Shown piece by piece: positions 1 through 15,241 of a stretch of DNA of 15,241 bases. Source of the DNA: an uncultured Bdellovibrio sp. Its GTDB lineage: Bacteria > Bdellovibrionota > Bdellovibrionia > Bdellovibrionales > Bdellovibrionaceae. The first letter of the stretch is position 1; each line of letters begins with the position of its first letter. The stretch spans positions 1-15,241 of the forward strand of contig CAWVRN010000048.1 in NCBI GenBank assembly GCA_963932905.1. Direction: 5' to 3'. The notes beneath the pieces were generated by a model. That model saw nothing but the letters and a program-made list of their open reading frames with translations. It ran no database searches and was not told the origin of the DNA. A program made the translations under genes and the position numbers.

Positions 1-84
1 CGGGCCAGAATCGAACTGGCACGCCCGTTTGACCGAAGCCCAGGATTTTAAGTCCTGTGTGTCTACCAGTTTCACCACCGGGGC
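1..84 (-). tRNA. tRNA-Leu(TAA), 3' end truncated by the window edge
   Basis: Reverse complement reads GCCCCGG-TGGTGAAACTGGTAGACAC-A-CAGGA-CT-TAA-AA-TCCTG, then a long variable arm, then GCCAG-TTCGATT-CTGGC-CCG. Anticodon TAA at 50-48, class II variable arm, canonical T-loop. The last ~4 acceptor-stem bases and discriminator lie outside the window. Confidence 0.96.
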
Positions 85-118
85 GCATGCAATTGCAAAA
101 ATGAATCACTAAAAAATC

Positions 119-154
119 ATTTTTCTTGAGCTTTGTCATCAAGAAATATCTAAT
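119..154. promoter_or_regulatory. Inverted repeat containing back-to-back -35-like hexamers between the tRNA and the ORF at 161
   Basis: TTTCTTGA(122-129)-N9-TCAAGAAA(139-146), extendable to 11 bp with 1 mismatch. Gives TTGAGC (+, 126-131) with a weak TCTAAT 17 nt downstream, and TTGATG (-, 142-137). Confidence 0.35.
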
Positions 155-160
155 TATTTC

Positions 161-859: not shown

Positions 860-887
860 TTCTAGCAGAAAATCGCAGGGAGTTTTT

Positions 888-1937: not shown

Positions 1938-2743
1938 TGGGCCCCATTGGTGTCTTTGATTCTGGCGTGGGAGGCCTAACAGTTTTAAAACAACTGTGTC
2001 TGACGTTCCCGTCGCAATCGTGGATTTACCTAGGCGACACGGCCCGATTACCCTACGGAACTAAATCGGGCGTGACCATTCGCACTTACACCGAGGAAAA
2101 TCTTAATTTCTTAAGTCATTTCAACTGCCAGGCATTTATCATCGCCTGTAATTCTGCTTCAGCGCAATTTCCCGACAATTCATTTAATGGTCGTCCGGTT
2201 TTTAAAGTGATTCAGCCAGGGGCTATTCAAGCTTTGCGTGAAACTCGCAATAACAAAATCGGTATTATTGGAACCAAAGCCACCATCAATTCGCGTGTCT
2301 ACGAACATGAACTTCGCGGCATGGGTTTTACTGGTGAATTATTTTCGCAAGCCTGCCCGTTATTTGTTCCTCTGGTTGAGGAAGGTTTGTTTCATGATCC
2401 AGCGACCGATTTAATCATCGATCGCTATTTACACCCCATGCGTGATGCCGGTATCGATACCTTGATTATGGGCTGCACCCACTACCCGTTACTACACCAA
2501 GCTTTTCGAAACTACTTTGGCCCTAATATTAGGCTTGTCAGCTCTGAAGCCGAACTGACTCAACAGCTGATGGCTAACCAATGTGTTCAGACCGAACCCT
2601 CACCACCCGGGCATATTATTCTCTACACCACGGACCGTGTGGAGTTCGTTACTGACGTTGCAAAAATGATTTTGTTAGGAACAACTCATACATTGGAATT
2701 TAGAAATCTAGGTGGTCCCAATGTCTATGAAGGACAGCCATGA
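1937..2743 (+). CDS. murI: Glutamate racemase
   Basis: IGVFDSGVGGLTV, YLGDTARLPYG, both catalytic cysteines (IACNSA, MGCTHYPLL), CPLFVPLVEEG. TAATG overlap with the upstream stop. Confidence 0.97.
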   Translation: MGPIGVFDSGVGGLTVLKQLCLTFPSQSWIYLGDTARLPYGTKSGVTIRTYTEENLNFLSHFNCQAFIIACNSASAQFPDNSFNGRPVFKVIQPGAIQALRETRNNKIGIIGTKATINSRVYEHELRGMGFTGELFSQACPLFVPLVEEGLFHDPATDLIIDRYLHPMRDAGIDTLIMGCTHYPLLHQAFRNYFGPNIRLVSSEAELTQQLMANQCVQTEPSPPGHIILYTTDRVEFVTDVAKMILLGTTHTLEFRNLGGPNVYEGQP

Positions 2744-3958
2744 ATGTGCGCTCGAGATTTCTAAAGCGCGATCTTGCAAATTGTAATCACTCGACATGGT
2801 CGCTGCGTAAGCACCGCAATCACGAACGACGATAAAATCGTCTTGTTTTACTTCAGGTAGCTCGCGGTCTTTACCAAAGAAATCAGCACTTTCACAGATT
2901 GGACCGACGACGTCATACTTTTTATTCACATCCGATTGTTTTAGTGAATGAATACTGTGATAGGCTTCATATAGCGACGGTCTAATTAAATGATTCATTC
3001 CGGAATCTAAAACAATAAATTCTTTGTGAGGTGTTTTCTTCACATATTGAACTTGTGAAATTAAAACTCCGCAATGTCCCACTAGCCAACGACCTGGTTC
3101 GGACTGGATTTCAAGCCCTGGGATGTCTTGCTTCAACTGACTCAATTCCGAGAAAACAGTTTCAGCGTATTGTTTTAGCAAATTATGTTCAGAATTTAAA
3201 TCCTGTTTTTCATAGTGAATACCCAGGCCACCACCAAAATCAAATCGATGACATTCTGGAAATTCTGACCTTAGTTTTAAAAACAAAGGTTTCAATTTCG
3301 CCAGCGAGTCTTTCAAACTTGAAAACTCCAGCATTTGGGAACCCAGATGCAATGAAATACCTCGCACAGACACCGACGACGTATGCAAGCGGGCCGTGGC
3401 AATGACGTCACTTAATTGGCCCGTGTCGATTCCAAACTTATTGTCTTTTAAACCTGTCGCAATATAGGGATGAGATTGAATACTGATATCAGGATTAATT
3501 CTAAATACAACATTGGCTTTCTTACCTATTTTTTTCGCCATTTCACCAATACGCTGCAGTTCAGGAATGCTTTCGACGTTAATTTGATGAATGTCGTTAC
3601 GAATCGCTAATTCTAATTCTTTACGGGTTTTCCCAACTCCGCTGTACACTAGCTGTTGATAGGTGAAACCATTTTTAATCGCATGCTGAATTTCACCACC
3701 GCTAACGACATCAATACCTACATTGTGATCTTTGAACACTTTGAGCACATCAGGATTGGAATTGGCTTTCAATGCATAGAATAAACGAACATCCTTTAGC
3801 TCGCTTTGCATTTGCTGTACGCGCGCACGGACAAAATCTAAATTGTAAAAAAACACGGGCCCTTGATAATTCTTAGTCAATTGGCTTAGCTTGTATTCCG
3901 CTTTATCACCTAAAAATACCAACTCGCCATTTTTATAAACCAAGAACTCTTTTTCCAT
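2708..3958 (-). CDS. lysA: Diaminopimelate decarboxylase
   Basis: PLP lysine motif YALKANSN, DVVSGGE, SGVGKT, HPYIATG..NKFG, HLGSQ, DFGGGLG, EPGR, GPICESAD, GAY. Start moved from the track's TTG 3988 to ATG 3958 (MEKEF), which has a GGGGG SD-like tract upstream. Confidence 0.95.
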   Translation of the reverse strand: MEKEFLVYKNGELVFLGDKAEYKLSQLTKNYQGPVFFYNLDFVRARVQQMQSELKDVRLFYALKANSNPDVLKVFKDHNVGIDVVSGGEIQHAIKNGFTYQQLVYSGVGKTRKELELAIRNDIHQINVESIPELQRIGEMAKKIGKKANVVFRINPDISIQSHPYIATGLKDNKFGIDTGQLSDVIATARLHTSSVSVRGISLHLGSQMLEFSSLKDSLAKLKPLFLKLRSEFPECHRFDFGGGLGIHYEKQDLNSEHNLLKQYAETVFSELSQLKQDIPGLEIQSEPGRWLVGHCGVLISQVQYVKKTPHKEFIVLDSGMNHLIRPSLYEAYHSIHSLKQSDVNKKYDVVGPICESADFFGKDRELPEVKQDDFIVVRDCGAYAATMSSDYNLQDRALEISSAHSWLSFIDIGTT

Positions 3959-4016
3959 CGACAGATGCCCCCAAAAACATAAAGCCAAATTTATTACGAA
4001 ATACCTTAAAATGCTA

Positions 4017-4045
4017 TTGAGTTTTTAGCTGAATCTCATTAATTT
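4017..4045 (+). promoter_or_regulatory. Putative sigma70-type promoter for mpaA-dapD
   Basis: TTGAGT(4017-4022)-N17-TAATTT(4040-4045), followed by SD-like AGGATGGT before ATG 4067. Confidence 0.45.
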
Positions 4046-4066
4046 ACTGGCCAGGATGGTTTTACT

Positions 4067-4732
4067 ATGAAAATGGAATTATTTGCTCGCACTCCAAAAC
4101 AGCTTCCTATTTTTAAATACTCGTTCGGTTCTGAGGGCCCTCGCGCCCTAATTATCGGCGGCGTACACGGAGATGAACCCGAAGGTGTGATTGCGGCACA
4201 GGGCGTGCTTGCGGCTTTGAATGAATCGTTTCATTACAAACTTCAGGTCACTGTGATTCCTGAATTTAATCCTGAAGGCGTACTGAATAAAATCCGCATG
4301 AATTCCAACGGCGTCGATTTAAATAGAAATCTTCCTACAAAAGACTGGTCACCTGTAGCTGCAAAAGAGCGCTATTTTCCTGGAAAATCTGCGTGCAGTG
4401 AGCCAGAGAATAAAGGCTTAGTGCAATTGCTCGATACCGTAAAATTTGATTTGATTATCAGCCTCCATTCTTGGAACCCCATGATTAACATCAATGGGCC
4501 AGACTGCGAACCAGAGGCTGAGATTATTAAAAAGCACACGGGCTATTCGATCGAACCTGATATCGGCTATCCGACTCCGGGTAGCTTAGGAACTTACGCG
4601 GGCAAGGAAAGACAGATCTCGACCATCACTTATGAAATTCAACGTGAACTTGATTTCCATGAAATTAACAAAATTCACGTTCCCGGTTTACTTGATTGCC
4701 TAAAACAAACTGAAAAAAGGAAACGTTCATGA
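4067..4732 (+). CDS. mpaA: M14 zinc carboxypeptidase, MpaA-like murein tripeptide amidase (gamma-D-Glu-meso-DAP)
   Basis: Zn motif GGVHGDE, NPEG, R.NSNGVDLNRN, SEPE, ISLHS, MpaA-typical GYPTPGSLG, catalytic TYE. 221 aa, no signal peptide. Confidence 0.82.
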   Translation: MKMELFARTPKQLPIFKYSFGSEGPRALIIGGVHGDEPEGVIAAQGVLAALNESFHYKLQVTVIPEFNPEGVLNKIRMNSNGVDLNRNLPTKDWSPVAAKERYFPGKSACSEPENKGLVQLLDTVKFDLIISLHSWNPMININGPDCEPEAEIIKKHTGYSIEPDIGYPTPGSLGTYAGKERQISTITYEIQRELDFHEINKIHVPGLLDCLKQTEKRKRS

Positions 4733-5571
4733 TCTTAGAACACGTGATTCAAAAAATAGATAAAGATTTAAAAGACGGCATGAACATCAACGACATTTCT
4801 GCCGAAGACACATCCGCAATCAAAGAAGTGATTCAACTTCTTGACCACGGGAAACTGCGGGTCGCTGAAAAAATCGTTGGCAAAACTGGTCCACAAAGCT
4901 GGAAAACAAATGAGTGGGTTAAAAAAGCTATCCTTCAGTATTTCCGCATTCAAAAAATGCAGATAATGCAGACTAACGAGTTTAACTACTACGACAAAAT
5001 TGCACCGAAGAAATGGACTGGATCCGAAGGTGTACGCGTGGTCCCCCCCGCTATTGCTCGCTACGGATCGTTTTTAAATTCAGGCTGCATTATGATGCCT
5101 TCGTATGTGAACATCGGTGCCTATGTTGATTCTGGAACAATGGTCGACACGTGGGCGACCGTGGGCTCTTGCGGTCAAATTGGAAAAAACGTTCATCTGT
5201 CCGGGGGTGTCGGTATTGGCGGCGTTCTTGAGCCAACTCAGGCTCAACCAGTGATTGTGGAAGATAATGTATTTATCGGATCACGTTGCATTATTGTCGA
5301 AGGCGTATTCATTGAAGAAGGCGCCGTGATCGGCGCCGGTGTGACTATCACATCCAGCACTAAAATTTTGGATGTTTCTAATTCTGAAGTTAAAGAATAT
5401 AAAGGCTATGTTCCTAAGAATTCTGTCGTTATCCCAGGGACTATCAACAAGAAATTCCCAGCGGGTGATTACGGCGTGAATTGTGCTCTGATTATTGGTC
5501 AGCGTAAGGCAAGTACTGATTTAAAAACGTCACTGAACGACACACTTCGCGATTTCCAAATCTCTGTTTAG
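4729..5571 (+). CDS. dapD: Tetrahydrodipicolinate N-succinyltransferase
   Basis: G.LRVAE, NEWVKKAIL, RVVPPA, MPSYVNIGAYVD.GTMVDTWATVGSC.QIGKNVHLSGGVGIGGVLEP, hexapeptide repeats, C-terminal LND.LR. ATGA overlap with mpaA. Confidence 0.97.
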   Translation: MILEHVIQKIDKDLKDGMNINDISAEDTSAIKEVIQLLDHGKLRVAEKIVGKTGPQSWKTNEWVKKAILQYFRIQKMQIMQTNEFNYYDKIAPKKWTGSEGVRVVPPAIARYGSFLNSGCIMMPSYVNIGAYVDSGTMVDTWATVGSCGQIGKNVHLSGGVGIGGVLEPTQAQPVIVEDNVFIGSRCIIVEGVFIEEGAVIGAGVTITSSTKILDVSNSEVKEYKGYVPKNSVVIPGTINKKFPAGDYGVNCALIIGQRKASTDLKTSLNDTLRDFQISV

Positions 5572-5588
5572 TTTTTCGTTTAGATATC

Positions 5589-5615
5589 AGCCGCGCGAAA
5601 ACGCGGCTAATTTTT
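5589..5615 (+). terminator. Rho-independent terminator after dapD, overlapping the stop codon of the convergent gene
   Basis: AGCCGCG-CGAAAA-CGCGGCT hairpin (5589-5608) followed by AATTTTT. No U-tract in the opposite direction. Confidence 0.65.
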
Positions 5616-6899
5616 CATTCTTAAAACTTCCGCCGGAGAAATCTTCTCGATAGCCTTGGTTGGCAAATACGAACCCAAGAATGCGACCAATGTCGTTACA
5701 AAAAGAACAGTAAAGAATAAAAACAAATTTACCTTTGCCGGTATCGTCGAATCATAGTAAATGTCCGGTAAAATATTGATCGGATACCACTCTAACAAAT
5801 ATCCAACGACCAAACCAAGCACGGCCCCTACAGAAACCCCAACCAATGACAAACCTACACCCATTTGAATAAAGTATTTAATGGCTGCCTTCTGCGATAA
5901 GCCTAGCGTTCTTAACATCGCAATATCGCGCTTCTTCTGCGAAATTAATAACGCCAATACCGTTAGAATAGAAAACGATGCGATCAAGCCGGCCAGTCCT
6001 AAAAATAAACCGATCATGAATTTTTCTAACTTCAATGCATAAAACAATGCCGAGTTTCGATCCATCCAAGTTTGAATGGTCCAATCTATATTCTTTTTAC
6101 CTTCACCCTTATGATCGTCTATCCAATCTTGCAAGCGGCTTTGAAAACGACCGGCATCCATGGCGTCCTTTAACCAAATTTCAAGACCGACTTGACGACT
6201 TAAGGAATTCCTTAGCGATGACAATGTCAAATCACGCATATAAAAAATATACTGAGAATCTAAATCAGCTAAATTTGTCGAAAGAATTTTTTTAATTTTT
6301 ACCTTTTCAAAAACAGGAACTTCACCCATGGCCAAAACCAGACTCTCGGGTGGCAACACCATTAAATAATCCCCCTCAAACACACCTAAACTGCGAGCTA
6401 GATCAACTCCAATCATGATTTCGTTCGATTCGGGAATATCCATTTCTTCCCACATCTGCCCGTCAGCCGACATGGAAGTACTTTTTTTCAAATGTTTTTC
6501 GTTTTGCTCTTTAATTTTCTGATTCAAATTTTCGAAACTTTTTCGAACAAACCCTTGCGCTATGGCGCCGCGGAATTGCCCTTCCATCGTACGTATGATC
6601 ACATCTTGCGTATCGAACAATGAATAGCGTTCAGCACCCAAGTTTTTAATCTCGGTGAGAATTGGATCAGATTCCAAACCTTTGTGTAAAGCTCTATCTT
6701 TTGGAACTAACGTCAAATGCGCTTCTAGTGAAATCACGCGTGATTCAATACTTTTATTCATCCCGTTCATAATAAAAAGAATCAACAAAAAAGCGAAGGT
6801 CGAAACACCGATACTGACCATCGATAGACGTGAAATCCGTCGCACCAGATTGCCTGCGCGATTTGATAGGATTAACTTTTTAAACAGAAACAAGACCAT
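5607..6899 (-). CDS. LolC/LolE-family lipoprotein-releasing ABC permease (MacB/FtsX fold)
   Basis: ISRLSMVSIGV...ILFIMNG N-terminal TM, large periplasmic domain (IG.DLA..LG...GD), W..RN.ALF.AL..EK, K.RDIA.LRTLG, YY...IP, P.......PAEVLR. Likely start ATG 6899 (MVLFLF) rather than 6962, which would collide with the divergent gene. Confidence 0.9.
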   Translation of the reverse strand: MVLFLFKKLILSNRAGNLVRRISRLSMVSIGVSTFAFLLILFIMNGMNKSIESRVISLEAHLTLVPKDRALHKGLESDPILTEIKNLGAERYSLFDTQDVIIRTMEGQFRGAIAQGFVRKSFENLNQKIKEQNEKHLKKSTSMSADGQMWEEMDIPESNEIMIGVDLARSLGVFEGDYLMVLPPESLVLAMGEVPVFEKVKIKKILSTNLADLDSQYIFYMRDLTLSSLRNSLSRQVGLEIWLKDAMDAGRFQSRLQDWIDDHKGEGKKNIDWTIQTWMDRNSALFYALKLEKFMIGLFLGLAGLIASFSILTVLALLISQKKRDIAMLRTLGLSQKAAIKYFIQMGVGLSLVGVSVGAVLGLVVGYLLEWYPINILPDIYYDSTIPAKVNLFLFFTVLFVTTLVAFLGSYLPTKAIEKISPAEVLRMKN

Positions 6900-6904
6900 G
6901 CCCA

Positions 6905-6952
6905 AGAGTAATAAATAGGGGCTTGCAACGCAAGGTGATTGTGAAATAGACT
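6905..6952. promoter_or_regulatory. Overlapping divergent sigma70-type promoters
   Basis: Minus strand: TTGCGT(6933-6928)-N17-TACTCT(6910-6905)-N5-ATG 6899. Plus strand: TTGCAA(6923-6928)-N18-TAGACT(6947-6952)-N8-ATG 6961. Both -35 boxes lie in the CTTGC-AAC-GCAAG palindrome. Confidence 0.5.
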
Positions 6953-6960
6953 TCAAAGTC

Positions 6961-7419
6961 ATGAGAGCACATTTTCAAATCGGATTGTTGATTTTACTGA
7001 CAACGCTCACTGCATTCACAAAGGATAGCAACAAAATGACTCGCGCCTGGTTTAAATTGAAAAATCCTCACTACATGACCGTTCACTATAAAGACCCGAC
7101 AAATAAGAAGAATGGTATCGTTGATGTTACTGTTACAGACATAGATCTTATCAACCGCACCATCAAAGACATCGAATCAACACCCATTGATGGCCCTATG
7201 ATGATTAAAATGGACGGTTCGCGCACAATTCAAGTCACGTTGACCTTTAGCAATGAAGAACCCTCTAAATCCAAAGAAACTGACGTCATTACCTTTTATA
7301 ATGGTATGATCAAAACACCAAGCACCGGGTTTCACGACCCGCAGCTAGATGTTATCAAAAAATTGTATTCAGATATACTAAAGGCAGCGAACATTAAGGT
7401 CGTTCGCAAAACCAAATAG
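6961..7419 (+). CDS. Hypothetical secreted/periplasmic protein
   Basis: 152 aa. Basic N-terminus plus hydrophobic stretch (MRAHFQIGLLILLTTLTAF), soluble remainder. Fills the gap between two minus-strand genes. No family recognised. Confidence 0.7.
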   Translation: MRAHFQIGLLILLTTLTAFTKDSNKMTRAWFKLKNPHYMTVHYKDPTNKKNGIVDVTVTDIDLINRTIKDIESTPIDGPMMIKMDGSRTIQVTLTFSNEEPSKSKETDVITFYNGMIKTPSTGFHDPQLDVIKKLYSDILKAANIKVVRKTK

Positions 7420-7428
7420 GACCTTTTT

Positions 7429-8421
7429 TTAAGGCTTAGCACCCTGTTTTTCACGCGCTGGTTGACGAGTTCCCTGCTTGATTTCTTCAGACTCTTCTTT
7501 AGTCACTTCTTGTACATTAGAACGTAAGAAGAAATTTTTCTGCATTGCTTTCATCAAAATAGTCGCTTCATCCAGAGCCTCCAAAGCCCGCTTCGCCACT
7601 GTTGGAACTTCTGGACCGTAATTTTTAAGCATAGTCGTTACGGATTTAAAATCTTCCGTCATTTGTGACAAGCTACTGGTCAATTGCGCCAAGTTTTTAG
7701 CCAGCTCTGGATTTTGACGATTTAATTCCGGCAATATCACATTTAGTTCTTTGGTTAATACGGCCGTTTGTGAAATCGTTTTCTTTAAATTTTCTTTGTA
7801 AGTCATCTGACGACTTAATTTAATCACTTCTTCAGACATTTCGTTCATGTTACCCATCAAAGGATCAAGCTTATCGAAGATACTTAACATCGATTTTGTA
7901 CGATCCCGATCAAGAAAGGCTTCCAATAAAAATTGTAAATTGCTTAGCATTTCAGAAATTTTTTCCAACGACGTACCTAGACGCTTACCACTCAACAAAG
8001 TCATCAAATCCAAAGTTTCTTCCGATTCAATGACCCCGCCTTCTTGTGCGATTTTTAATTCTGCACTACCGACAGAAATTTCTAATACACGATCACCAAT
8101 CACAAATGGACGCACTAACTGCGCTTTTGAATCCTCACGGATTCTTTCATGAAATTTTCCCAGTACGTAGTACGTCACACGAATTTTGTTGTTACCTAAA
8201 AGTTCCACATCTTCCACACCACCAGCGCGAAGACCGGCAATTAGAACCGTCGTTCCCGGATGAACCCCATCCGCCGACACGAAAACTGATTCAAATTTGA
8301 TTTTTTTTTCAAACCAACCTTGCTTAATCGCCACACTGACTGCCATAACGAAACAGCCCACTATCGCAAACAGGACAAATAAACCAGCAACCCGTTCAAA
8401 TTTGTTAAACTTTACCTTCAT
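7429..8421 (-). CDS. MCE (MlaD-family) protein with long C-terminal helical region
   Basis: N-terminal anchor (AGLFVL), MCE core F.SADGVHPG..V.IAGLRAG.VE.V...I.EDS.A......IG...LEI..GS, then about 190 aa of helical/coiled-coil-like sequence. ATGA overlap with the upstream gene. Confidence 0.9.
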   Translation of the reverse strand: MKVKFNKFERVAGLFVLFAIVGCFVMAVSVAIKQGWFEKKIKFESVFVSADGVHPGTTVLIAGLRAGGVEDVELLGNNKIRVTYYVLGKFHERIREDSKAQLVRPFVIGDRVLEISVGSAELKIAQEGGVIESEETLDLMTLLSGKRLGTSLEKISEMLSNLQFLLEAFLDRDRTKSMLSIFDKLDPLMGNMNEMSEEVIKLSRQMTYKENLKKTISQTAVLTKELNVILPELNRQNPELAKNLAQLTSSLSQMTEDFKSVTTMLKNYGPEVPTVAKRALEALDEATILMKAMQKNFFLRSNVQEVTKEESEEIKQGTRQPAREKQGAKP

Positions 8422-9149
8422 AAACTAACTGCCTTATTCCCTTCCGTCTGCGGCGCATACAGCAAACCGTTATCCAGATGGATGGTGAGATGATTTATGT
8501 GGCTCATAAATTTTTCGTCATACGAAGAAATAAAAACGTGCTTCAAGCCTCGCTCTGCTCGATGCTTGTTAATTAGGTCAATAAACTTCAGACTTGTCTC
8601 TTGCCCTAAACCAACTGATGGGTCATCTAATAGTAGAACCTGAGGATGAGTCATCATTGGACGCAACAGACATGAAATTTTTCTTATGCGGCCGGGAATA
8701 TGAGCAGGGCGTTCGTCTTTGAATTTCTCAAGGTCAAAATATTTTAAAACTTCCATTACGCGCCGATTTGCTTCCTCGACTTCAACCAATTTGTGGTACA
8801 GCAACGGCAACATTAGATTTTCATAGATCGTGCGGTTGTTAATCAAACCACCATAGTCAAATGTGTACCCGATGGACAAACGATACGGCAAAAATTCTTC
8901 GAATGACATCTCGCCTACGTTAGAATCATTAATTAAGAATTTACCTGATTGAGGCACAATCAATCCACCTAGGATCTGCAACAGAGTCGATTTTCCAGCA
9001 CCCTGTATAGACTGAATCAAAACATTTTCATTTGTAGGGAATTCAAAATCAGCATTCATTAAAATAGGATCTTGAGTTTCATGCTGAAAGAACAAACTTT
9101 CAAATTTTAGACTTTTAATTTGTGGCATCAGTTTGGTTGGTTCGCTCAT
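8418..9149 (-). CDS. MlaF-like ABC nucleotide-binding protein with degenerate catalytic motifs
   Basis: Walker A SIQGAGKST, GL..P.SG, R..IGY.F, EN..LPL (MlaF-like), Walker B LLLDD. Located between mlaE-like and mlaD-like genes with ATGA overlaps on both sides. Confidence 0.88.
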   Translation of the reverse strand: MSEPTKLMPQIKSLKFESLFFQHETQDPILMNADFEFPTNENVLIQSIQGAGKSTLLQILGGLIVPQSGKFLINDSNVGEMSFEEFLPYRLSIGYTFDYGGLINNRTIYENLMLPLLYHKLVEVEEANRRVMEVLKYFDLEKFKDERPAHIPGRIRKISCLLRPMMTHPQVLLLDDPSVGLGQETSLKFIDLINKHRAERGLKHVFISSYDEKFMSHINHLTIHLDNGLLYAPQTEGNKAVSL

Positions 9150-9970
9150 ACAACACCTAGTTTTTGTAATTGGTTCAGATACACAATGGCAGTTACAACT
9201 AAATTAAATACAGTGACATAAATAATACTTTTCACCACGGCTTGCGTAGTGACTTGCGGAACCTCGTGCGGACTCTTCTTAACACTTAGACCTTGGAAAC
9301 ACGATACGACGAAAATGATAACGCCACTAAAACCGTTCTTCAGTAGAAAAATCGCGACATCCTCTTTACCAAAGGCACGCAATAAATTTTCGCTATAGAA
9401 ACTAAACGGAATGTCATGGAAGAATTGCGTGAGCAAGTAACCACCAAAAATCGCGATAATCATGAAATAAAAAGCCAGACACAGAACGCTTACAATACCT
9501 CCGACTATGCGGGGGAAAACGATATAGCTTAATGGATTTATACCCATCGACTCCAAAGCTTCGATTTCGCGATTCGCGCGCATATTGCCGACTTCGGTAG
9601 CAACGGCAGTTCCGCTTCGTGCAATGACAACCAGCGCGGTTAATAGTGGCCCAATTTCGCGCACTAACACGACGACAATCAAGTTACCCAGCATTTCTGT
9701 ACCACCTAACAAAGTTAAATTGGTCATACCTTGGATAACCAAAATGCCGCCCGTTCCTAATGCTAAAATTGAAATTAGGGGCATTGCTTGCCACCCTGTA
9801 AAATAAATCTGCGTTGAAAGAACGCTTAGAGTTTGACGTAATCCTTGCGCCTGATCTAGGAAAGCGGCGCGGAACGAAAGATAAATCATAAGGAAAATTT
9901 TTAGAGTGTACTCTAAGTTTTCCGTGATGGTACGACCTAACGATTCTATTCGATCCCAGACAATGTTCAT
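9146..9970 (-). CDS. mlaE: MlaE-family ABC permease
   Basis: Q.YFTG.QA.P, VREIGPLLTALVV.ARSGTA.ATE.G.M....EIEALE.MGINP..Y.V.PR, K...SG, C..G, VP..TT.AVV.S. Confidence 0.93.
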   Translation of the reverse strand: MNIVWDRIESLGRTITENLEYTLKIFLMIYLSFRAAFLDQAQGLRQTLSVLSTQIYFTGWQAMPLISILALGTGGILVIQGMTNLTLLGGTEMLGNLIVVVLVREIGPLLTALVVIARSGTAVATEVGNMRANREIEALESMGINPLSYIVFPRIVGGIVSVLCLAFYFMIIAIFGGYLLTQFFHDIPFSFYSENLLRAFGKEDVAIFLLKNGFSGVIIFVVSCFQGLSVKKSPHEVPQVTTQAVVKSIIYVTVFNLVVTAIVYLNQLQKLGVV

Positions 9971-9977
9971 GCAAATT

Positions 9978-10004
9978 TTATCGGAACAATTGTTACAATA
10001 TCTA
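9978..10004 (-). promoter_or_regulatory. Putative sigma28 (FliA) promoter of the MCE operon
   Basis: TAGA(10004-10001)-N15-TCCGATAA(9985-9978) versus consensus TAAA-N15-GCCGATAA; 7 nt to ATG 9970; no SD. Confidence 0.6.
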
Positions 10005-10064
10005 ACTCGATATTAGTCTAGTCTTTGATAAAGACCTGATCAAGATTCTCAATACTGAACATTT

Positions 10065-10622
10065 TTAATATGCCCAGATAGAGTAAAACAGTGACTTAAA
10101 AGTCTCTTGAAGTCGATCAAAGGCTGAGTCCGTATCGCTAGAGCGAGCCATGACGTGGGTTTTGATATCAATCACCTTAGGAAACACCTTGTAGAAGGTT
10201 CGTTTGGATCGGTACATATGCAATGCCGACGTGATCAACATCACATCTTGGCAGTTTAGAATTTCAGCTAGCGGCAGACTCTGAGTCGCATTACCAAAGG
10301 TTGTTTCACTGCGTTTCTCAAGAACTACGTCTTTTTCATCCACCTCAGGATAAAATGCCCACAACGGAAATATTTCTTTAATATCAGAATTGGGATTTAC
10401 CCCCGAAATAATTAATTTCCGAATATTTTTATTTGCCAGCAGATCCATGGCTTCACGAATACGACCCGGCCCGCCTGTTAAGACAATGCCACAGTCAGCT
10501 TCGGACACATGGGTCCACGCAGTCGAACGCACGGAACTCACAGAAACAAATTCAAAATAAAAAATAATGACAAACAGGACGACAAGGAAACTAGAAAAAT
10601 AAAGAACTATCTTCTTTCTCAT
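10065..10622 (-). CDS. DUF218 (YdcF/ElyC/SanA-like) membrane-anchored protein
   Basis: N-terminal TM, then IVLTGG..RI..A..L, IISG, E..S.TT.GNA, LITS..HM.RS, C-terminal E..K. Confidence 0.88.
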   Translation of the reverse strand: MRKKIVLYFSSFLVVLFVIIFYFEFVSVSSVRSTAWTHVSEADCGIVLTGGPGRIREAMDLLANKNIRKLIISGVNPNSDIKEIFPLWAFYPEVDEKDVVLEKRSETTFGNATQSLPLAEILNCQDVMLITSALHMYRSKRTFYKVFPKVIDIKTHVMARSSDTDSAFDRLQETFKSLFYSIWAY

Positions 10623-10637
10623 TACTTGGCGCTAGCC

Positions 10638-11018
10638 CTATGCCTTGTATGCTAGAACTTCGATTTCTACTTGAACACCTTTTGGCAATCCACGCACCTC
10701 GACAGTTGAGCGCGCCGGCGGATTATTTGGGAAAAAGCGGCCATAGATTTCGTTCACAGTGGGAAAATCACTCATTGCAGTTAAAAAGATTGTTGTTTTA
10801 ACAACATTCTCAAACTTCATCCCGCCTGCCGTTAACACAGCTTCTACATTCTTCATCACTTGTTCCGTTTGAGTTTTTACATCCTGACCCACTACTTGCG
10901 CGGTCTTCGGATCTAGCGCTATTTGCCCTGAACAAAACAAAAATGGTCCCGCTGAAATTGCTTGGCTGTATGGTCCAATTGGTTCCGGTGCATCTTTAGT
11001 AAGTATTACTTTTTTCAT
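10638..11018 (-). CDS. ridA: RidA-family reactive enamine/imine deaminase
   Basis: AP.PIGPYSQAI, LF.SGQI, VVKTTIFL..M.DF..VNE.Y..FF, PARS (catalytic Arg), LPKG..VEIE. Start ATG 11018 with SD GAGGAG; the track's 11072 start is too long. Confidence 0.93.
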   Translation of the reverse strand: MKKVILTKDAPEPIGPYSQAISAGPFLFCSGQIALDPKTAQVVGQDVKTQTEQVMKNVEAVLTAGGMKFENVVKTTIFLTAMSDFPTVNEIYGRFFPNNPPARSTVEVRGLPKGVQVEIEVLAYKA

Positions 11019-11046
11019 ATCTATCTCCTCAGTATGTAAACTATTT

Positions 11047-11529
11047 TTAAAAGTAAAATGTAATTCCTGCACGCATTGGGGAATCAGCGATGGTTCTAAA
11101 TCGAGTGTCTTTCAACGAAGAAATACCCGCACCACCTTCAAAAGAAAACCCTAACGAATCTAAACCAGTGAAAAAGAACTCAGCACCAAACACAGCATTC
11201 AACTCAAAACCATTTTGCTTTTCGCCGCCACCTTCATAATTCACGATGCCCACTTGGCCACCAAAATAAAAATTGAGCTGATTTTCACGAAACAAAATTT
11301 TACGGACGCCACCGCTGACAACAAATTTAGATTGATCTTTTTTAGTGTCGATTCCAATACCGCCAGTGATACCAAAATCTTGATTTGGATAGTAAACAAC
11401 ACCCACAGCAGGAACATCTTCAGACGAATTGTTTTTCACGCCTACGCCCAGACGACTCGCTAAATCTTTAGCAAACACGCTCTGAGACAACAAAATTACT
11501 ACTGCCGCTATTTTAATTAATGAATTCAT
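11047..11529 (-). CDS. Small outer-membrane beta-barrel protein (about 8 strands)
   Basis: Signal peptide ending SVFA|KD, Gly/aromatic-rich alternating strands (RLGVGV, FGITGGIGI, FYFGGQVGI, FGAEFFF, FSFEGGAGI), C-terminal beta-signal AGITFYF. SD AAAGGAG. Confidence 0.85.
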   Translation of the reverse strand: MNSLIKIAAVVILLSQSVFAKDLASRLGVGVKNNSSEDVPAVGVVYYPNQDFGITGGIGIDTKKDQSKFVVSGGVRKILFRENQLNFYFGGQVGIVNYEGGGEKQNGFELNAVFGAEFFFTGLDSLGFSFEGGAGISSLKDTRFRTIADSPMRAGITFYF

Positions 11530-11542
11530 GCCCGGCTCCTTT

Positions 11543-11561
11543 ACATTTGAGACTCAAATGT
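11543..11561. promoter_or_regulatory. Perfect 19-bp palindrome, candidate operator
   Basis: ACATTTGAG-A-CTCAAATGT directly upstream of the barrel gene SD. Overlaps the -10 of a candidate minus-strand promoter TTGAAA(11586-11581)-N17-AAACAT(11563-11558) with an extended TG. Confidence 0.55.
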
Positions 11562-11602
11562 TTTCACTAAAGGTCGGTATTTTCAAGATCTTATATGTTA
11601 AT

Positions 11603-11623
11603 CGGAGCGTTATTTAACCTCCG
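11603..11623 (-). terminator. Hairpin downstream of the phasin-like gene; weak terminator or 3' stabiliser
   Basis: CGGAG-C-GTTA-TT-TAAC-CTCCG, 14 nt after the stop at 11638. No convincing U-tract. Confidence 0.3.
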
Positions 11624-11637
11624 CCAATACAGAAAAA

Positions 11638-12024
11638 CTAATCGTTATCTTTGATGACTTCCACGCGCTCTATTTTAGTTTCTTTTTTTATGATATCGAT
11701 TTCAGCACTGATTTTAAATTTATGAGTCTCTGCAAATTTACTTAATTCACTGATCCAATCAATTTTATTAAAAATTCCAATGATTTCTTTAGACACTCGT
11801 TGAGTGATGTCGTCTTTGGATTTATTTGCACTTTGGATAATTACATTTAGGATTTCTTTAGGTAACTTTAATTCTTGTAAATAACTACGAATGTTCTCTT
11901 CCGTCATAAATGCAGCAGAGACTCCTGTTGTAAAAACTTTTTTCAAAGTTTCTGAGAACATCCCTTTTGCATCTTCGAACAAAGGACCATCATTCTTCTT
12001 ATTTGAAGAATCATTATTTTCCAT
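11638..12024 (-). CDS. Hypothetical helical protein, phasin-like N-terminal motif
   Basis: 128 aa. LKKVFTTGVSAAFMTEE.I resembles the LKK....G.GA...T.E start of phasin-related proteins. Overlaps the upstream gene by 11 nt. Confidence 0.6.
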   Translation of the reverse strand: MENNDSSNKKNDGPLFEDAKGMFSETLKKVFTTGVSAAFMTEENIRSYLQELKLPKEILNVIIQSANKSKDDITQRVSKEIIGIFNKIDWISELSKFAETHKFKISAEIDIIKKETKIERVEVIKDND

Positions 12025-12457
12025 AAAGTTGTTGTATCCTTTTGTGATAACTAGAAACCATGTTGGGTAAACTCACACTGACCAAAGTATTCGCAATTGG
12101 CCCTGGAACAAAAATACCGAATGTAGCTTCCACTTCGTAGGTAGCTCGGCATTGACTGCCTTCCGGTTCAATTTTCCAAGAACCACGTTGAGTTTTAAAC
12201 ACGTCACCAGAAATAAAGTCCCAAGTTACCGTTGAAACACCATTTTCAACATGATTTTCAACCATTTGCAGACGATAGCTAAATGATTTTACCATAGACA
12301 CTGAATACTCTACGATTTTTTTAGAACCTTCGTCTTTGATAACTTCGCATTTTTTTACTTCGGATAAAAATTCGGGGTATTTAGAATAGTCAGTAACGAT
12401 TTTATATAATTGATCTGCTGTGCATTTGAAGACTTCGCTTGTCTGTGCTTTTGCCAT
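12014..12457 (-). CDS. SRPBCC/START-fold protein (Coq10/RatA-like polyketide cyclase family)
   Basis: LY.IV.DY.KYPEFL..V...EV, W....GD.FK...GSW..E, Y.VE...G; 147 aa. Confidence 0.88.
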   Translation of the reverse strand: MAKAQTSEVFKCTADQLYKIVTDYSKYPEFLSEVKKCEVIKDEGSKKIVEYSVSMVKSFSYRLQMVENHVENGVSTVTWDFISGDVFKTQRGSWKIEPEGSQCRATYEVEATFGIFVPGPIANTLVSVSLPNMVSSYHKRIQQLYGK

Positions 12458-12463
12458 ACTTCA

Positions 12464-12493
12464 ATTCTGAAGGACAGGACAAGACGAAGTCAA
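12464..12493 (-). promoter_or_regulatory. Putative sigma70-type promoter giving a leaderless START-protein mRNA
   Basis: TTGACT(12493-12488)-N18-CAGAAT(12469-12464)-N6-ATG 12457. Pyrimidine-rich leader with no SD. Confidence 0.5.
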
Positions 12494-12509
12494 ATTGAAA
12501 ACGTCTAGC

Positions 12510-13472
12510 TTATAGAGGTTTTGTACTCAAGTTATGAAGCGTATCGATGGTACGGATAGTTCCCGTTTTCGATCGCATCACGATGCTATGAGTGCGCGCC
12601 ATGCTTTTAGGCAAAGATTTAACACCTTTCAACAACGGCCCATCGGTAACACCCGTTGCACAAAACATGACACTTCCTCGAGCCAGGTCATCAATCTTAT
12701 ACTTTTGCTCTAGATTTTTGATTCCCATTTTCAGAGCCCGCGCTTTTTCTTCTTCGTTACGAAACTTCAAACGACCTTGAAAATCACCACCTAGACATTG
12801 CATCGCTGCGGCCGAAATAACGCCTTCCGGTGCGCCACCAATTCCCATTAATAAATCGATTCCACTATCAGGCCATGCGGCTGCCACAGCTGCGGAAACA
12901 TCACCATCGCCGATCAAATGAATACGAGCGCCCGTTTTACGAGTTTCTGCAATTAGATCTTTGTGGCGTGGACGATCTAAAATAACAACAGTTACGTCAC
13001 TGACTGCTTTCTTCAATGCTTCCGCCACGCGATTGATATTTTCAGTGGGTGATTTATCAATATCAATCATGCCCTTAGCTGCTGGACCACAGGCTATTTT
13101 ATCCATGTACGTGTCTGGGGCATGTAGAAAGTTTCCATGTTCCGCTAGCGCTATCACCGAAATGGATCCTACGCCGCCCGTTGCACAGATTGTTGTTCCT
13201 TCTAATGGATCTAGCGCAATGTCGACTTTTGGAGAATCTTCTGTCGTTCTAAAACCTACCTTTTCACCGATATACAACATCGGAGCTTCGTCACGCTCAC
13301 CTTCCCCAATGACCACCGTACCATCGATACGAACTGTATCGAATGCGCGCCTCATTGCATCGACAGCCGCTTGGTCGGCTGCCTTTTCATTACCATGCCC
13401 AATCCAACGCGCACTTGCTAAGGCTGCCGCTTCAGTCACACGTACAAATTCTAAAGCCAGGTTTCTTTCCAT
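12510..13472 (-). CDS. glpX: Fructose-1,6-bisphosphatase class II
   Basis: MERNLALEFVRVTEAAA, VVIGEGERDEAPMLYIGE, DPLEGT, APDTYMDK, LDRPRH, DGDV, GGAPEGV, ATGVTDG. SD GGAG lies within the upstream gene. Confidence 0.97.
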   Translation of the reverse strand: MERNLALEFVRVTEAAALASARWIGHGNEKAADQAAVDAMRRAFDTVRIDGTVVIGEGERDEAPMLYIGEKVGFRTTEDSPKVDIALDPLEGTTICATGGVGSISVIALAEHGNFLHAPDTYMDKIACGPAAKGMIDIDKSPTENINRVAEALKKAVSDVTVVILDRPRHKDLIAETRKTGARIHLIGDGDVSAAVAAAWPDSGIDLLMGIGGAPEGVISAAAMQCLGGDFQGRLKFRNEEEKARALKMGIKNLEQKYKIDDLARGSVMFCATGVTDGPLLKGVKSLPKSMARTHSIVMRSKTGTIRTIDTLHNLSTKPL

Positions 13473-13873
13473 ATTAGGGTCTCCATCACGTTTTTAAATT
13501 CTTTGGTTAATCGTTGAGGTCGTAAGCTTTTATCGAGTGACACATGCGTTGTTTCCGCTAAACTAATGATCTCACTCTCTTTTTGAATTTTATACTGGAA
13601 ATAAATTCGAATACCTTCCATTTTAACTTGCAACCAAACCGTCAACACATCGCCGAAGAACGATGGCTTAATATGTTTAACTCGCGTCTCTAAAACAGCA
13701 AAATGCGAGGCGCTTTCCGGCTTTTGGTAATCAATCAAACCAACTGAGTGCGCCCAGGCCACACGAGCTTCCTCACAAAAGCGTAAATAATTAGTATGAT
13801 GAACAACACCCATGGTGTCCGTTTCATAAAATTGTACGCGATGCTGGTATGAAAAAATGTTATCCGATTTCAT
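13451..13873 (-). CDS. YbgC/FadM-like hot-dog acyl-CoA thioesterase
   Basis: RV.FYETD.MGVVHH.NYLR.CEEAR. Start ATG 13873 (MKSDN) with a GGGGG SD-like tract. 22-nt overlap with glpX. Confidence 0.88.
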   Translation of the reverse strand: MKSDNIFSYQHRVQFYETDTMGVVHHTNYLRFCEEARVAWAHSVGLIDYQKPESASHFAVLETRVKHIKPSFFGDVLTVWLQVKMEGIRIYFQYKIQKESEIISLAETTHVSLDKSLRPQRLTKEFKNVMETLIWKETWL

Positions 13874-13967
13874 TAATTTAGCCCCCAAATCTACACCCTT
13901 TATACTTTTTTTCAATTTCCTTTTTTCAAATGACAAAACAGGGGGCCTGACCTACATCTTAGGCCTC

Positions 13968-14561
13968 GTGTCGACACCATTACCTCTGTGGAAACAGAAA
14001 CTTCCGATGCAGCTAACTATGAGCCGTGTGTACGCGGTTCCTGTCGTTATTTTATGCCTAAATCAATCGCGTTTTTTCTTTTCTATCGTTGCCGCAGTTC
14101 TATTCATACTCGCCTCTATCACTGACTATTTCGATGGCTATTATGCAAGAAAGTGGAAGCTGGTCAGTAACTTGGGCAAATTCATGGATCCGGTTACTGA
14201 CAAGATCCTAGTTTCTAGTGTTTTGATTTTCCTAACGGTTCAGGGTGCTATTGACCCTTACGTAGTTATTCTATTGATTGTTCGCGACACCTTCATCGGC
14301 GGCATTCGTGCGGTCGCCTCTGCGGATCAGATCATTATTGACGCTAAGCCGTCGGGAAAATGGAAAGCCGGCCTACAAATGGGGGCCATTCCGGCATTGA
14401 TATTGGGCAATTCTTACCACGGGCAATACGATGCACAGATTTTCACCCAGATTTTTCAAAAAGTGGGACAAATTGGGTACGCCGTTCTTTGGATTTCATC
14501 GATTTTAAGTATTGTCAGCGCGATAGAATATTATAACATCTATAAGCAAGGCAAAAAGTAG
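13968..14561 (+). CDS. pgsA: CDP-diacylglycerol--glycerol-3-phosphate 3-phosphatidyltransferase
   Basis: LP.QLT.SR and CDP-alcohol phosphotransferase motif TDYFDGYYARK....SNLGKFMDP.TDK, plus RD..I.G.R, GK.KA..QM, S..EY. Start uncertain: GTG 13968 preferred; the track's ATG 13857 overlaps the divergent gene. Confidence 0.9.
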   Translation: MSTPLPLWKQKLPMQLTMSRVYAVPVVILCLNQSRFFFSIVAAVLFILASITDYFDGYYARKWKLVSNLGKFMDPVTDKILVSSVLIFLTVQGAIDPYVVILLIVRDTFIGGIRAVASADQIIIDAKPSGKWKAGLQMGAIPALILGNSYHGQYDAQIFTQIFQKVGQIGYAVLWISSILSIVSAIEYYNIYKQGKK

Positions 14562-14566
14562 GATTT

Positions 14567-14716
14567 ATGCTTAGATATTTACAACCCTCATCTTGGTTTT
14601 TTATATTTTTAGCTCTGCTATTGAGCTTGTATTTCACTTCAAAATTACAGGCCAGTCGCCGCTTGGCGCCCATGATCAAAGTTAGCCCCGCATCTTTTGT
14701 TAGCTTCGGTCAATAA
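14567..14716 (+). CDS. Small (49 aa) membrane-anchored or secreted protein, below the ORF-track cutoff
   Basis: Hand translation MLRYLQPSSWFFIFLALLLSLYFTSKLQASRRLAPMIKVSPASFVSFGQ*. Starts 5 nt after the pgsA stop and ends 11 nt before the next ATG; one hydrophobic segment. Confidence 0.5.
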   Translation: MLRYLQPSSWFFIFLALLLSLYFTSKLQASRRLAPMIKVSPASFVSFGQ

Positions 14717-14727
14717 TTCATGTTTAC

Positions 14728-15198
14728 ATGTCCTCCATGAAGACATCATCTATTCAAAAAACTTGTTTCATTCTTTTATCTGTATTCAGCTTAGCATTCA
14801 GTGGTTGTGAAACGCTGGGTGTCCTGCAAAGCTTAATCGAACCCCCAAAGGTAGACGTTGAGTCCGTCAACATCGGTAAAGTCGGCATGGAAGGTATCGA
14901 TTTAGAAGTGAATTTAAAAGTTAACAATCCTAACTCGGCCGCTCTTAATATCGATAAATTTAAATATGACTTAGCCATTGGCGACAGTTCCCTTTTCAGC
15001 GGCGTTTACGACAAAAAAGTAGAACTAAAATCGAACGACATGACTCACGTAATGATCCCTGTAAAATTAGATTACAAATCGGCGCGGGCCGCTGTTGAAA
15101 ATTACCTTTTCAAATCAATCCGTGATTACAAACTAAAAGGTTCGCTATCCAGTGGCGCTTTCACGGTCCCGATTGAAGGCTCCGGCAAAATTGAATGA
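14728..15198 (+). CDS. LEA_2/WHy-domain lipoprotein
   Basis: Lipobox-like FSG|C, P.V....V, L.V.NPN...L......Y.L WHy signature. Alternative start ATG 14737. Confidence 0.87.
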   Translation: MSSMKTSSIQKTCFILLSVFSLAFSGCETLGVLQSLIEPPKVDVESVNIGKVGMEGIDLEVNLKVNNPNSAALNIDKFKYDLAIGDSSLFSGVYDKKVELKSNDMTHVMIPVKLDYKSARAAVENYLFKSIRDYKLKGSLSSGAFTVPIEGSGKIE

Positions 15199-15205
15199 AC
15201 TGGTC

Positions 15206-15224
15206 CCTTAGCCTGCGGCTAAGG
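15206..15224 (+). terminator. Hairpin after the LEA_2 gene; possible terminator
   Basis: CCTTAGCC-TGC-GGCTAAGG, 8-bp perfect stem 7 nt after the stop. No clear U-tract. Confidence 0.4.
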
Positions 15225-15241
15225 CCAATTAAGATATCGTC

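Follow-up and report, generated by a model that had tools for sequence, protein, structure and literature searches.

The ATP requirement and the direction of Mla-type MCE transport have been debated for years. LetAB and PqiABC are ATPase-free MCE tunnels, thought to move lipids without an ATP-binding cassette (ABC) motor. In heterodimeric ABC transporters with one degenerate nucleotide site, such as TM287/288, TmrAB, CFTR and ABCB11, this site is always paired with a consensus site, the two being provided by two different chains. Here, we describe an Mla-type operon of an uncultured Bdellovibrio sp. (assembly GCA_963932905.1, contig CAWVRN010000048.1, positions 7429–9970), the only nucleotide-binding domain (NBD) of which has lost the residues associated with catalysis and dimer closure in ABC proteins. 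The term window is used for the whole stretch of DNA analysed, positions 1–15,241 of the contig (15,241 nucleotides).

The MlaEFD system of Veillonella parvula includes no MlaA, MlaB or MlaC, and its MlaD, about twice the size of the E. coli protein, has been proposed to bridge the envelope (PMC10665443). In P. aeruginosa, the MCE protein PA3213 (312 aa) forms a needle about 170 Å long, and its conserved C-terminal peptide docks on a PqiC-like lipoprotein; LetA-like proteins are named as inner-membrane partners in the same work (PMC13631591). A single shared MceG serves several mycobacterial Mce systems. Mutants in its Walker B aspartate or catalytic glutamate had fatty acid import cut by about 90% and lowered cholesterol use, and M. 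tuberculosis MceG Walker B mutants failed to stabilise their Mce complexes (PMC9947336).

Operon Structure and Motifs of the NBD

The operon comprises three overlapping genes, with the following features:

9146–9970, minus strand: mlaE-type permease, 274 aa (P0001), PF02405 at 218 bits
8418–9149, minus strand: degenerate ABC nucleotide-binding domain, pseudo-MlaF, 243 aa (P0002), PF00005 at 62 bits
7429–8421, minus strand: MCE (MlaD-like) protein, 330 aa (P0003), PF02470 at 36.6 bits and TIGR04430 at 52 bits
9146–9149, minus strand: ATGA stop/start overlap from mlaE to the NBD gene, by direct sequence reading
8418–8421, minus strand: ATGA stop/start overlap from the NBD gene to the MCE gene, by direct sequence reading

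Both junctions read ATGA, as stated in the initial annotation of the window, which had described an intact NBD frame coupled to both of its neighbours.

To assign its motifs, the NBD was aligned with three canonical MlaF-like paralogues encoded in the genome and with the solved YtrE and LolD. Walker A reads SIQGAGKST from S47, with the lysine (K53) kept, and the Walker B aspartate is kept as D175, so that both Walker consensus sequences are matched apart from the serine at the first Walker A position. This serine is a minor point; among the 30 orthologues described below, the position is occupied by S in 18, G in 7 and A in 5. The other motifs have changed. The position of the Q-loop glutamine is taken by D98 (GYTFD), the signature reads IPGRI (151–155) instead of LSGGQ, the catalytic glutamate position is D176 (LLLDDP) and the D-loop aspartate position is G182 (SVGLG). 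The H-loop histidine position corresponds to Y210 in the MAFFT alignment or to S209 in the HMMER alignment, and no histidine occurs anywhere in 204–212. Hence, the NBD has neither the catalytic set (Q-loop Gln, Glu, H-loop His) nor the dimer-closing set (LSGGQ, D-loop Asp). In known heterodimeric ABC exporters, the site that does not hydrolyse ATP is characterised by an aspartate at the catalytic glutamate position. The alignments bore out each motif named in the initial annotation (K53, Ser47, Asp98, IPGRI at 151–155, Asp176 and the D-loop glycine); its assignment of the switch histidine to Tyr210 is that given by MAFFT.

The PF00005 (ABC_tran) score of 62 bits lies well above the cut-off of 25 and below the range of the other single NBDs of the genome (75–131 bits). 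As a control, 31 other single-NBD open reading frames (ORFs) of the genome were examined. They were drawn from 62 PF00005 matches as frames of up to about 340 aa scoring at least 75 bits, with the other 30 matches (long multi-domain or weak) excluded. The Walker A lysine and the Walker B aspartate are found in 31/31 of these ORFs, the glutamine in 27/31, the glutamate in 30/31 and the D-loop aspartate and the histidine in 29/31 each. None of the 31 loses the set together; therefore, the joint loss of motifs in the pseudo-NBD is not attributable to chance.

Conservation of the Losses among Orthologues

When 41 related genomes were searched at the protein level, clear orthologues were identified at 30 loci, with identities ranging from 97% to 32%. 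This set shares the losses, as a comparison with relatives suggested in the initial annotation was meant to establish: the Q-loop glutamine and the catalytic glutamate are each found in 1/30, the H-loop histidine in 0/30, the D-loop aspartate in 3/30, the signature serine in 7/30 and the second signature glycine in 8/30. The Walker B aspartate is present in all 30 and the Walker A lysine in 21, the remaining nine having arginine (six), leucine, glutamine or threonine (one each). The substitute residues are also conserved, namely D98 in 27/30, D176 in 26/30, Tyr or Phe at position 210 in 23/30, P152 in 21/30 and G182 in 20/30. The position that we take to be the A-loop aligns with H, Y or F in most orthologues. 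Arg156 (29/30) was considered as a replacement for the signature glutamine, forming a nucleotide-free salt bridge across the dimer. This idea was dropped, as the column is not that of the LSGGQ glutamine in MlaF-like NBDs and is variable in the canonical NBDs of the genome.

The gene order mlaE–NBD–MCE (E-F-D) was found at 30/30 orthologue loci and at 15/15 further fetched loci. In all 45 loci, there is one mlaE and one NBD gene per operon, and the NBD frame is intact. Nine of the 15 fetched loci belong to other families of the phylum, and in 8/9 of these the gene after the trio lies on the opposite strand. Their NBDs are even more degenerate, with glutamine in 0/9, glutamate in 1/9, histidine in 0/9, the Walker B aspartate in 3/9 and the lysine in 7/9.

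A library of 1.84 billion cluster representatives contained 119 proteins matching at E ≤ 1e-30. Among the 150 matches listed, 123 of 200–320 aa were aligned and 27 fragments or long proteins were dropped; the canonical-looking P0124 and P0148 and the truncated P0081 were further set aside, which left 120 representatives. None of the 120 has lysine, glutamate, glutamine and histidine together. The lysine is found in 61, the glutamate in 30 and the glutamine in 1, and retention of the glutamate is unrelated to retention of the lysine (15, 46, 15 and 44 proteins in the four classes). This pattern fits an ancient catalytic loss, after which nucleotide binding eroded in individual lineages and the protein itself was retained.

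Selection, Evolutionary Rates and Predicted Fold

Nonsynonymous (dN) and synonymous (dS) rates were calculated by the Nei–Gojobori method; dS was saturated for most pairs, and their dN/dS ratio (omega) is not computable. In the closest pairs, the NBD has a dN of 0.019–0.034 against a dS of about 2, giving an omega of 0.010–0.016, the same as for MlaE (0.009–0.013); one further pair gave an NBD omega of 0.039. Where computable, the values thus indicate strong purifying selection. The relatives share the motif losses, and relaxed selection on this copy beside canonical relatives, the situation that the initial annotation had named as contradicting its proposal, was not observed.

Across orthologues, neither of the other two subunits is as well conserved as MlaE. 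The identities of E, NBD and D of the window system are 69, 60 and 49% to the relative G017, 61, 39 and 40% to G028 and 58, 39 and 41% to G031, and the canonical NBD of the other Mla-like system is 69, 67 and 69% identical in the same comparisons. MlaE of that other system shows 60–68% identity across the three genomes, so that change in MlaE is about equal in both systems. NBDs owe their place as the slowest-evolving ABC subunit to a constraint that the pseudo-NBD has lost, yet it is constrained enough to preserve the fold.

The AlphaFold2 model of the NBD, built from a 35-sequence alignment, has a mean predicted local distance difference test value of 93.3 and shows a complete ABC fold. In a Foldseek search, the model aligned with FtsE, LolD and MlaF chains at template modelling (TM) scores of about 0.8. 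Conservation in the diverse alignment is highest in the Walker B block (0.70) and in the pre-Q helix and Q-loop region 82–105 (0.69), followed by the region around the signature (0.65) and by Walker A (0.62). In established ABC structures, NBDs hold on to the coupling helix through the Q-loop region. On the permease side, MlaE retains the core of its family and the coupling-helix motif (REIEALESMGINP), like the four canonical MlaE paralogues encoded in the genome. At its C-terminus (window 8418–8460, minus strand), the NBD ends in residues (consensus K-K-x-V-x-L) that are conserved among orthologues and modelled with low confidence. They may be a counterpart of the C-terminal 'handshake' extension that MlaF is said to possess.

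The conserved losses, low omega and complete modelled fold argue against a pseudogene and support the initial proposal of an intact, selected gene encoding an NBD that is predicted to be catalytically dead.

Distribution and Phylogeny

A profile of 35 diverse members was run over 301 genomes sampled from the phylum. Exactly one match was found in 56/301 genomes, each of at least 204 bits; the next best match anywhere scored 165 bits, and the canonical paralogue of the source genome scored 154 bits. The profile matched in 27/36 genomes of the window's family. The distribution is patchy elsewhere, with matches in 6/67 and 4/34 genomes of two large families. One genus of the window's family (g3; G011, G062, G190 and others) lacks the pseudo-NBD system in 9/9 genomes.

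Close relatives at 80–97% identity are Bdellovibrio sp., Bdellovibrionaceae and Pseudobdellovibrionaceae metagenome-assembled genomes (MAGs), and chromosomes of B. bacteriovorus show about 60% identity. A pattern scan of named genomes covered the best 80 of 138 relatives, and all but four of these 80 are labelled as Bdellovibrio-type or Oligoflexia. Two of the four are labelled only as 'Deltaproteobacteria' and 'Proteobacteria'; the other two are MAGs labelled as Bacillota and Streptomyces griseus, with 50–58% identity, and may be mis-binned. A Protein Atlas search returned generic ABC clusters only, the first being a Bdellovibrionota cluster.

The phylogenetic tree was constructed from 47 NBDs (31 of the source genome, 9/30 orthologues and 7 representatives) with a quick search in IQ-TREE under LG+G4. 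The degenerate NBDs form one clade with a Shimodaira–Hasegawa-like approximate likelihood ratio test (SH-aLRT) support of 100 and a stem of 0.86. A split with a support of 94 separates this clade and the MlaF-like NBDs from the LolD-like clade (95) and 20 other NBDs; the nodes joining the degenerate clade to the MlaF-like group have a support of only 24. The best NCBIfam and PDB sequence matches of the NBD are LolD, FtsE and YtrE, which is not evidence of LolD ancestry because the tree places the family away from the LolD-like clade. Against the MlaF model NF008809 (PRK11831), the NBD scores 65.4 bits, with a cut-off of 441. The canonical MlaF-like NBDs of the genome also fall short of this value (166–194 bits), so that the cut-off excludes the whole phylum and not just this NBD. 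In the tree, the non-degenerate NBD closest to the family is P0148, which keeps the lysine, glutamine, glutamate, D-loop aspartate and histidine and has a degenerate signature (LSLEH); it may be an intermediate form.

MCE Subunit and Envelope Partners

The model of the MCE protein features a transmembrane helix (7–33) and a confidently predicted MCE barrel (40–134). Residues 139–315 are modelled as helical throughout, a tail of about 175 residues that has low confidence in the monomer model and agrees with the long helical tail described in the initial annotation. The tail was found in all 18 aligned orthologues, with a middle part variable in length and a conserved C-terminal block consisting of a helix and an acidic stretch that ends in an R-x-P-A motif. 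At the C-terminus (window 7429–7600, minus strand; about residues 275–330), the helix has the consensus R-A-x-E-A-L-x-E-A, then K-A-M-Q-K-S-F-F-L-R, and is conserved across the phylum.

No mlaA, mlaC or pqiC was found within the window, in line with the initial annotation, and a search of the whole genome (98.6% complete) with Pfam profiles gave no match to PF04333, PF05494 or PF03886 (the MlaA, MlaC and PqiC families), MlaB (STAS) not being searched for. The lack of MlaA and MlaC is not odd, because MlaEFD-only systems with a long MlaD have been described (PMC10665443). The source genome carries four MlaE-containing MCE loci and one double-MCE gene on contig C16. All MCE systems of this organism may be of the bridge type.

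Neighbouring Genes

The trio is preceded by orf160, RidA and DUF218 genes and followed by a gene for a LolC/E-like permease; these neighbours were treated as synteny, and membership in the system is not claimed for them. The two nearest are:

10065–10622, minus strand: DUF218 gene, syntenic upstream neighbour, PF02698
5607–6962, minus strand: LolC/E-like FtsX-family (FtsX/MacB_PCD) permease, syntenic downstream neighbour, TIGR02212 at 181.8 bits

Both genes flank the trio in 6/6 fetched loci of the same order or class, and the DUF218 gene adjoins it in 74/80 close loci. They are missing at 9/9 fetched loci from other families of the phylum.

In the window, the gap of about 460 bp between the MCE and LolC/E-like genes is filled by an ORF of 152 aa (6961–7419, plus strand) with a signal-peptide-like N-terminus. 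Its start overlaps the start of the divergent LolC/E-like gene by 2 bases. The ORF has no Pfam or NCBIfam match and no counterpart at any of the 80 related loci; at one of them (95% identity), the MCE and LolC/E-like genes abut without it. No signal emerged from a scan of 6800–10800, in which 4 promoter-like sites (8.4 expected) and 1 terminator-like site (3.5 expected) were detected.

Expression and Annotation in B. bacteriovorus HD100

At 90% identity, the B. bacteriovorus orthologue clusters with a 236-aa protein from strain HD100. The HD100 rows from Bd1766 (RidA-like) to Bd1774 (LolC/E-like) were mapped by synteny and gene lengths rather than by accession. In published transcriptomic data (Karunker 2013, table S2, PMC3627812), the permease gene Bd1768 (825 bp) has 21.6 reads per kilobase per million (RPKM) in the attack phase and 20.9 in the growth phase and is flagged as silent. 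The gene for the ATP-binding protein, Bd1769 (711 bp), has 124.5 RPKM in the attack phase against 11.4 in the growth phase and is listed as attack-phase specific (9.9-fold), and the MCE gene Bd1770 (954 bp) has 137.2 against 13.8 RPKM (9.35-fold). The downstream Bd1771 and Bd1773 reach 2500–3900 RPKM in the attack phase, with almost nothing in the growth phase (PMC3627812). The step in expression inside the HD100 operon could originate from an internal attack-phase promoter or from antisense reads.

In two RNA-labelled soil libraries of one study, contigs that map to a B. bacteriovorus-like version of the operon span both the E/F and the F/D junction. Such libraries may contain DNA, and these contigs were not counted as evidence of expression; two further runs gave short pieces only.

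In public records, the orthologues are entered as 'cell division ATP-binding protein FtsE' or 'ABC transporter ATP-binding protein', labels that hide what the pseudo-NBD is. A full-text literature search, supplements not covered, found no description of a degenerate MlaF or of Bd1768–Bd1770.

Proposed Mechanism

From the lost residues, we infer that the NBD does not hydrolyse ATP, and the transporter probably works without burning ATP. The explanation that we favour, by a modest degree of confidence, is that the pseudo-NBD serves as a scaffold or clamp for a passive MlaE–MCE lipid bridge. The operon would encode an Mla-type MCE machine, presumably MlaE2–NBD2–(MCE)6 by analogy with MlaFEDB. The NBD would be docked on the coupling helix of MlaE and hold the permease dimer together. 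Lipid would pass through MlaE and the long helical MCE tunnel between the inner membrane and the outer one, moving down its own gradient. Such movement would resemble that in the ATPase-free Let and Pqi MCE systems and in bridge-like lipid transfer proteins rather than ATP-driven pumping. The Walker A lysine, the Walker B aspartate and an aromatic residue or histidine at the presumed A-loop position are kept in the window's lineage; for this reason, the NBD of this lineage probably binds nucleotide without turning it over. In HD100, the orthologous genes are higher in the attack phase, when the cells swim freely, which suggests that they function in maintaining the envelope or in contact with prey rather than in growth.

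Several points weigh against this explanation. The aspartate at the catalytic position could support slow hydrolysis. A good P-loop and Walker B aspartate, among the best conserved blocks, fit a nucleotide-dependent role better than a pure scaffold. The HD100 mlaE gene Bd1768, at about 21 RPKM in both phases and flagged as silent, does not follow the NBD and MCE genes (PMC3627812). In addition, a dead NBD is not automatically a good scaffold, because MceG Walker B mutants failed to stabilise their complexes (PMC9947336).

Alternative Explanations

The pseudo-NBD might instead act as a nucleotide latch or sensor, with ATP or ADP bound and not hydrolysed and its occupancy gating the MlaE/MCE conduit according to the energy state of the cell. 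CFTR and SUR use ABC domains for gating rather than for pumping. The Walker A lysine (21/30) and Walker B aspartate (30/30) of the window and its close relatives, the H, Y or F at the presumed A-loop position in most orthologues and the place of the Walker A and B blocks among the best conserved all point in this direction. However, the binding motifs decay across the family, the lysine remaining in 61/120 representatives and the Walker B aspartate in 3/9 distant members, and nucleotide binding therefore cannot be the common function of the family. The signature that closes the nucleotide sandwich has also been lost (Ser 7/30, second Gly 8/30). We regard a latch as the main rival explanation, unlikely though worth serious consideration.

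Slow ATP-driven transport, with D176 as the general base and other residues replacing the glutamine and histidine, seems improbable. A carboxylate is available at the catalytic position as aspartate in 26/30 orthologues, and the glutamate itself is kept in 30/120 representatives. Against this, five catalytic or dimer-closing elements have been lost together, no representative combines the lysine, glutamate, glutamine and histidine, and retention of the glutamate does not track that of the lysine. Furthermore, aspartate at this position is the substitution associated with non-hydrolysing sites in heterodimeric exporters.

It is decidedly improbable that the system is energised in trans, by a canonical MlaF-like NBD from another locus that replaces the pseudo-NBD or pairs with it. 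The genome does contain mlaE at three other loci, all of which have an NBD and an MCE gene of their own, the MlaE coupling helices of the paralogues are similar and the shared MceG offers a precedent (PMC9947336). However, every canonical MlaF-like NBD of the genome adjoins its own mlaE, and the pseudo-NBD is always present and translationally coupled to both neighbours. The orphan canonical MlaF paralogue that the initial annotation had envisaged did not emerge. A search with the MlaF model gave a fourth MlaF-like NBD, P0154, the only one in the source genome not adjoining an mlaE. Its Walker A, Q-loop, signature and D-loop are intact, the catalytic Glu is replaced by Asp and the H-loop His by Asn, and its orthologue lies directly upstream of NBD–mlaE–mlaE–MCE genes, in a five-gene operon, in 3/3 relatives examined (L133, L134 and L135). 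P0154 was rejected as a trans-acting motor, since it lacks the glutamate and histidine and belongs to the operon of another system. The window NBD, for its part, shows degeneracy in each half of the composite site, on the Walker B/H-loop side as well as on the signature side. Hence, a consensus site would not be regained by pairing it with a canonical chain, and a heterodimer containing the window NBD would lack one. Of the two options left by the initial annotation, a non-hydrolysing conduit or sensor is favoured; dependence on an unlinked active NBD is weakened by the features of P0154, by the two-sided degeneracy and by the presence of just one mlaE and one NBD gene at all 45 loci.

The P0154 system itself (G000:C1:82400–89825; locus L111, 2398–9826) has two mlaE genes and two different NBDs. 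The partner of P0154 keeps the glutamate and histidine and has SYG for SGG in the signature, and judging by sequence, the two form a textbook heterodimer with one consensus and one degenerate site within an MCE system. In the source genome, the pair is split by two plus-strand ORFs of 185 and 946 aa without a Pfam match; in 3/3 relatives, the five genes directly adjoin one another, with a start/stop overlap in one. The P0154-type NBD is also missing from genus g3 (3/3 genomes). Across the order, pseudo-NBD and P0154-type genes mostly co-occur, with six exceptions among the genomes covered by both searches, and kinship may be the cause of this co-occurrence.

Service of the NBD to the neighbouring LolC/E-like FtsX-family permease can be considered very improbable. 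The best matches of the NBD are LolD, FtsE and YtrE, the permease gene adjoins the trio in 74/80 close loci, and the gene at 5607–6962 is the only one of the four best lolCE matches of the genome without an adjoining LolD-like NBD. However, the NBD family falls outside the LolD-like clade (SH-aLRT 95) and on the MlaF-like side of the split (94), and the permease gene is missing from 9/9 distant loci that keep E-F-D. Variable gene inserts also separate the MCE gene from the permease gene across loci, and such a permease, which works by mechanotransmission, could not be driven by a dead NBD either.

Gene decay ahead of eventual loss, as the low Pfam score (62 bits) and the faster evolution of the NBD relative to canonical NBDs might suggest, is barely credible given the intact frame in 45/45 loci, an omega of about 0.01–0.04, conserved substitute residues, a confidently modelled fold, phylum-wide occurrence and expression in HD100.

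Implications

With the scaffold explanation taken as the basis, a broader reading can be put forward tentatively, as one that we hold to be possible and on balance rather doubtful. According to it, the family would be a phylum-wide ABC class that has given up both nucleotide sites and kept the NBD as a static clamp, turning an Mla-type pump into a passive, ATP-independent lipid bridge; the bridge would be raised in the attack phase to service or remodel the predator's own outer membrane before or during prey entry. To our knowledge, no ABC transporter has previously been shown to work without any hydrolytic site. If the reading is true, this would be the first such case and a natural experiment on the need for ATP in Mla-type lipid flow. 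The operon itself provides a conserved natural version of an Mla-type system with the motor disabled and the permease and tunnel kept. It is also a rare case among ABC proteins in which a homodimeric NBD would have two dead sites, and it extends the concept of pseudo-enzymes to ABC transporters. The orthologues Bd1768–Bd1770 belong to the genetically tractable, non-pathogenic model predator HD100, which makes direct testing possible.

Comparison with Known Systems

The window system resembles MlaFEDB of E. coli, A. baumannii and P. aeruginosa (PDB 6xbd, 6xgz, 6z5u) in the MlaE family of its permease, in its overlapping genes, in an MCE subunit with an N-terminal transmembrane helix and in an NBD that is encoded between or beside the other subunits and has a fold similar to MlaF (TM score about 0.8). 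It differs from MlaFEDB in lacking the Q-loop glutamine, signature, catalytic glutamate, D-loop aspartate and H-loop histidine, and no MlaA or MlaC was found in the source genome, where MlaB was not searched for. Judged by motifs only, the window NBD does not match the hydrolysis-competent NBD of the MlaFEDB/MlaEFD type. The MCE protein of 330 aa with its long helical tail also contrasts with the E. coli MlaD of 183 aa (PMC10665443).

With MlaEFD of V. parvula, the operon shares the three-gene core and overlapping genes. Veillonella MlaF, unlike the window NBD, is described as closely resembling canonical ones, and the word 'degenerate' does not occur in that paper, where 'Walker' appears only as the name of an author among the references (PMC10665443). 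Unlike Veillonella MlaD, the helical tail in the window has no recognisable beta-barrel in a helix-only, low-confidence model. The P. aeruginosa system PA3211–PA3214 is likewise similar, with a permease resembling MlaE, an ABC NBD and a similarly sized protein that contains a single MCE domain (PMC13631591). The conserved C-terminal block of the window MCE protein recalls the docking peptide of PA3213 and PqiB (PMC13631591), yet no PqiC-like receptor was found: PA3211–PA3214 includes a PqiC-like outer-membrane lipoprotein receptor, whereas no PF03886 gene was found in the source genome. PA3212 is described as an ATPase (PMC13631591), in contrast to what the motifs of the window NBD would predict.

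The substitutions themselves are of the kind seen in the heterodimeric TM287/288, TmrAB, CFTR and ABCB11, where the catalytic Glu is replaced by Asp or another residue, the H-loop His is lost and the signature departs from the consensus. Unlike in these transporters, one chain carries both halves of the degeneracy and is the only NBD of its operon, so that both sites of a homodimer would be dead. LetAB and PqiABC, finally, use PqiA/LetA-type membrane proteins and have neither MlaE nor an NBD, whereas the window system keeps what appears to be a disabled ABC module.

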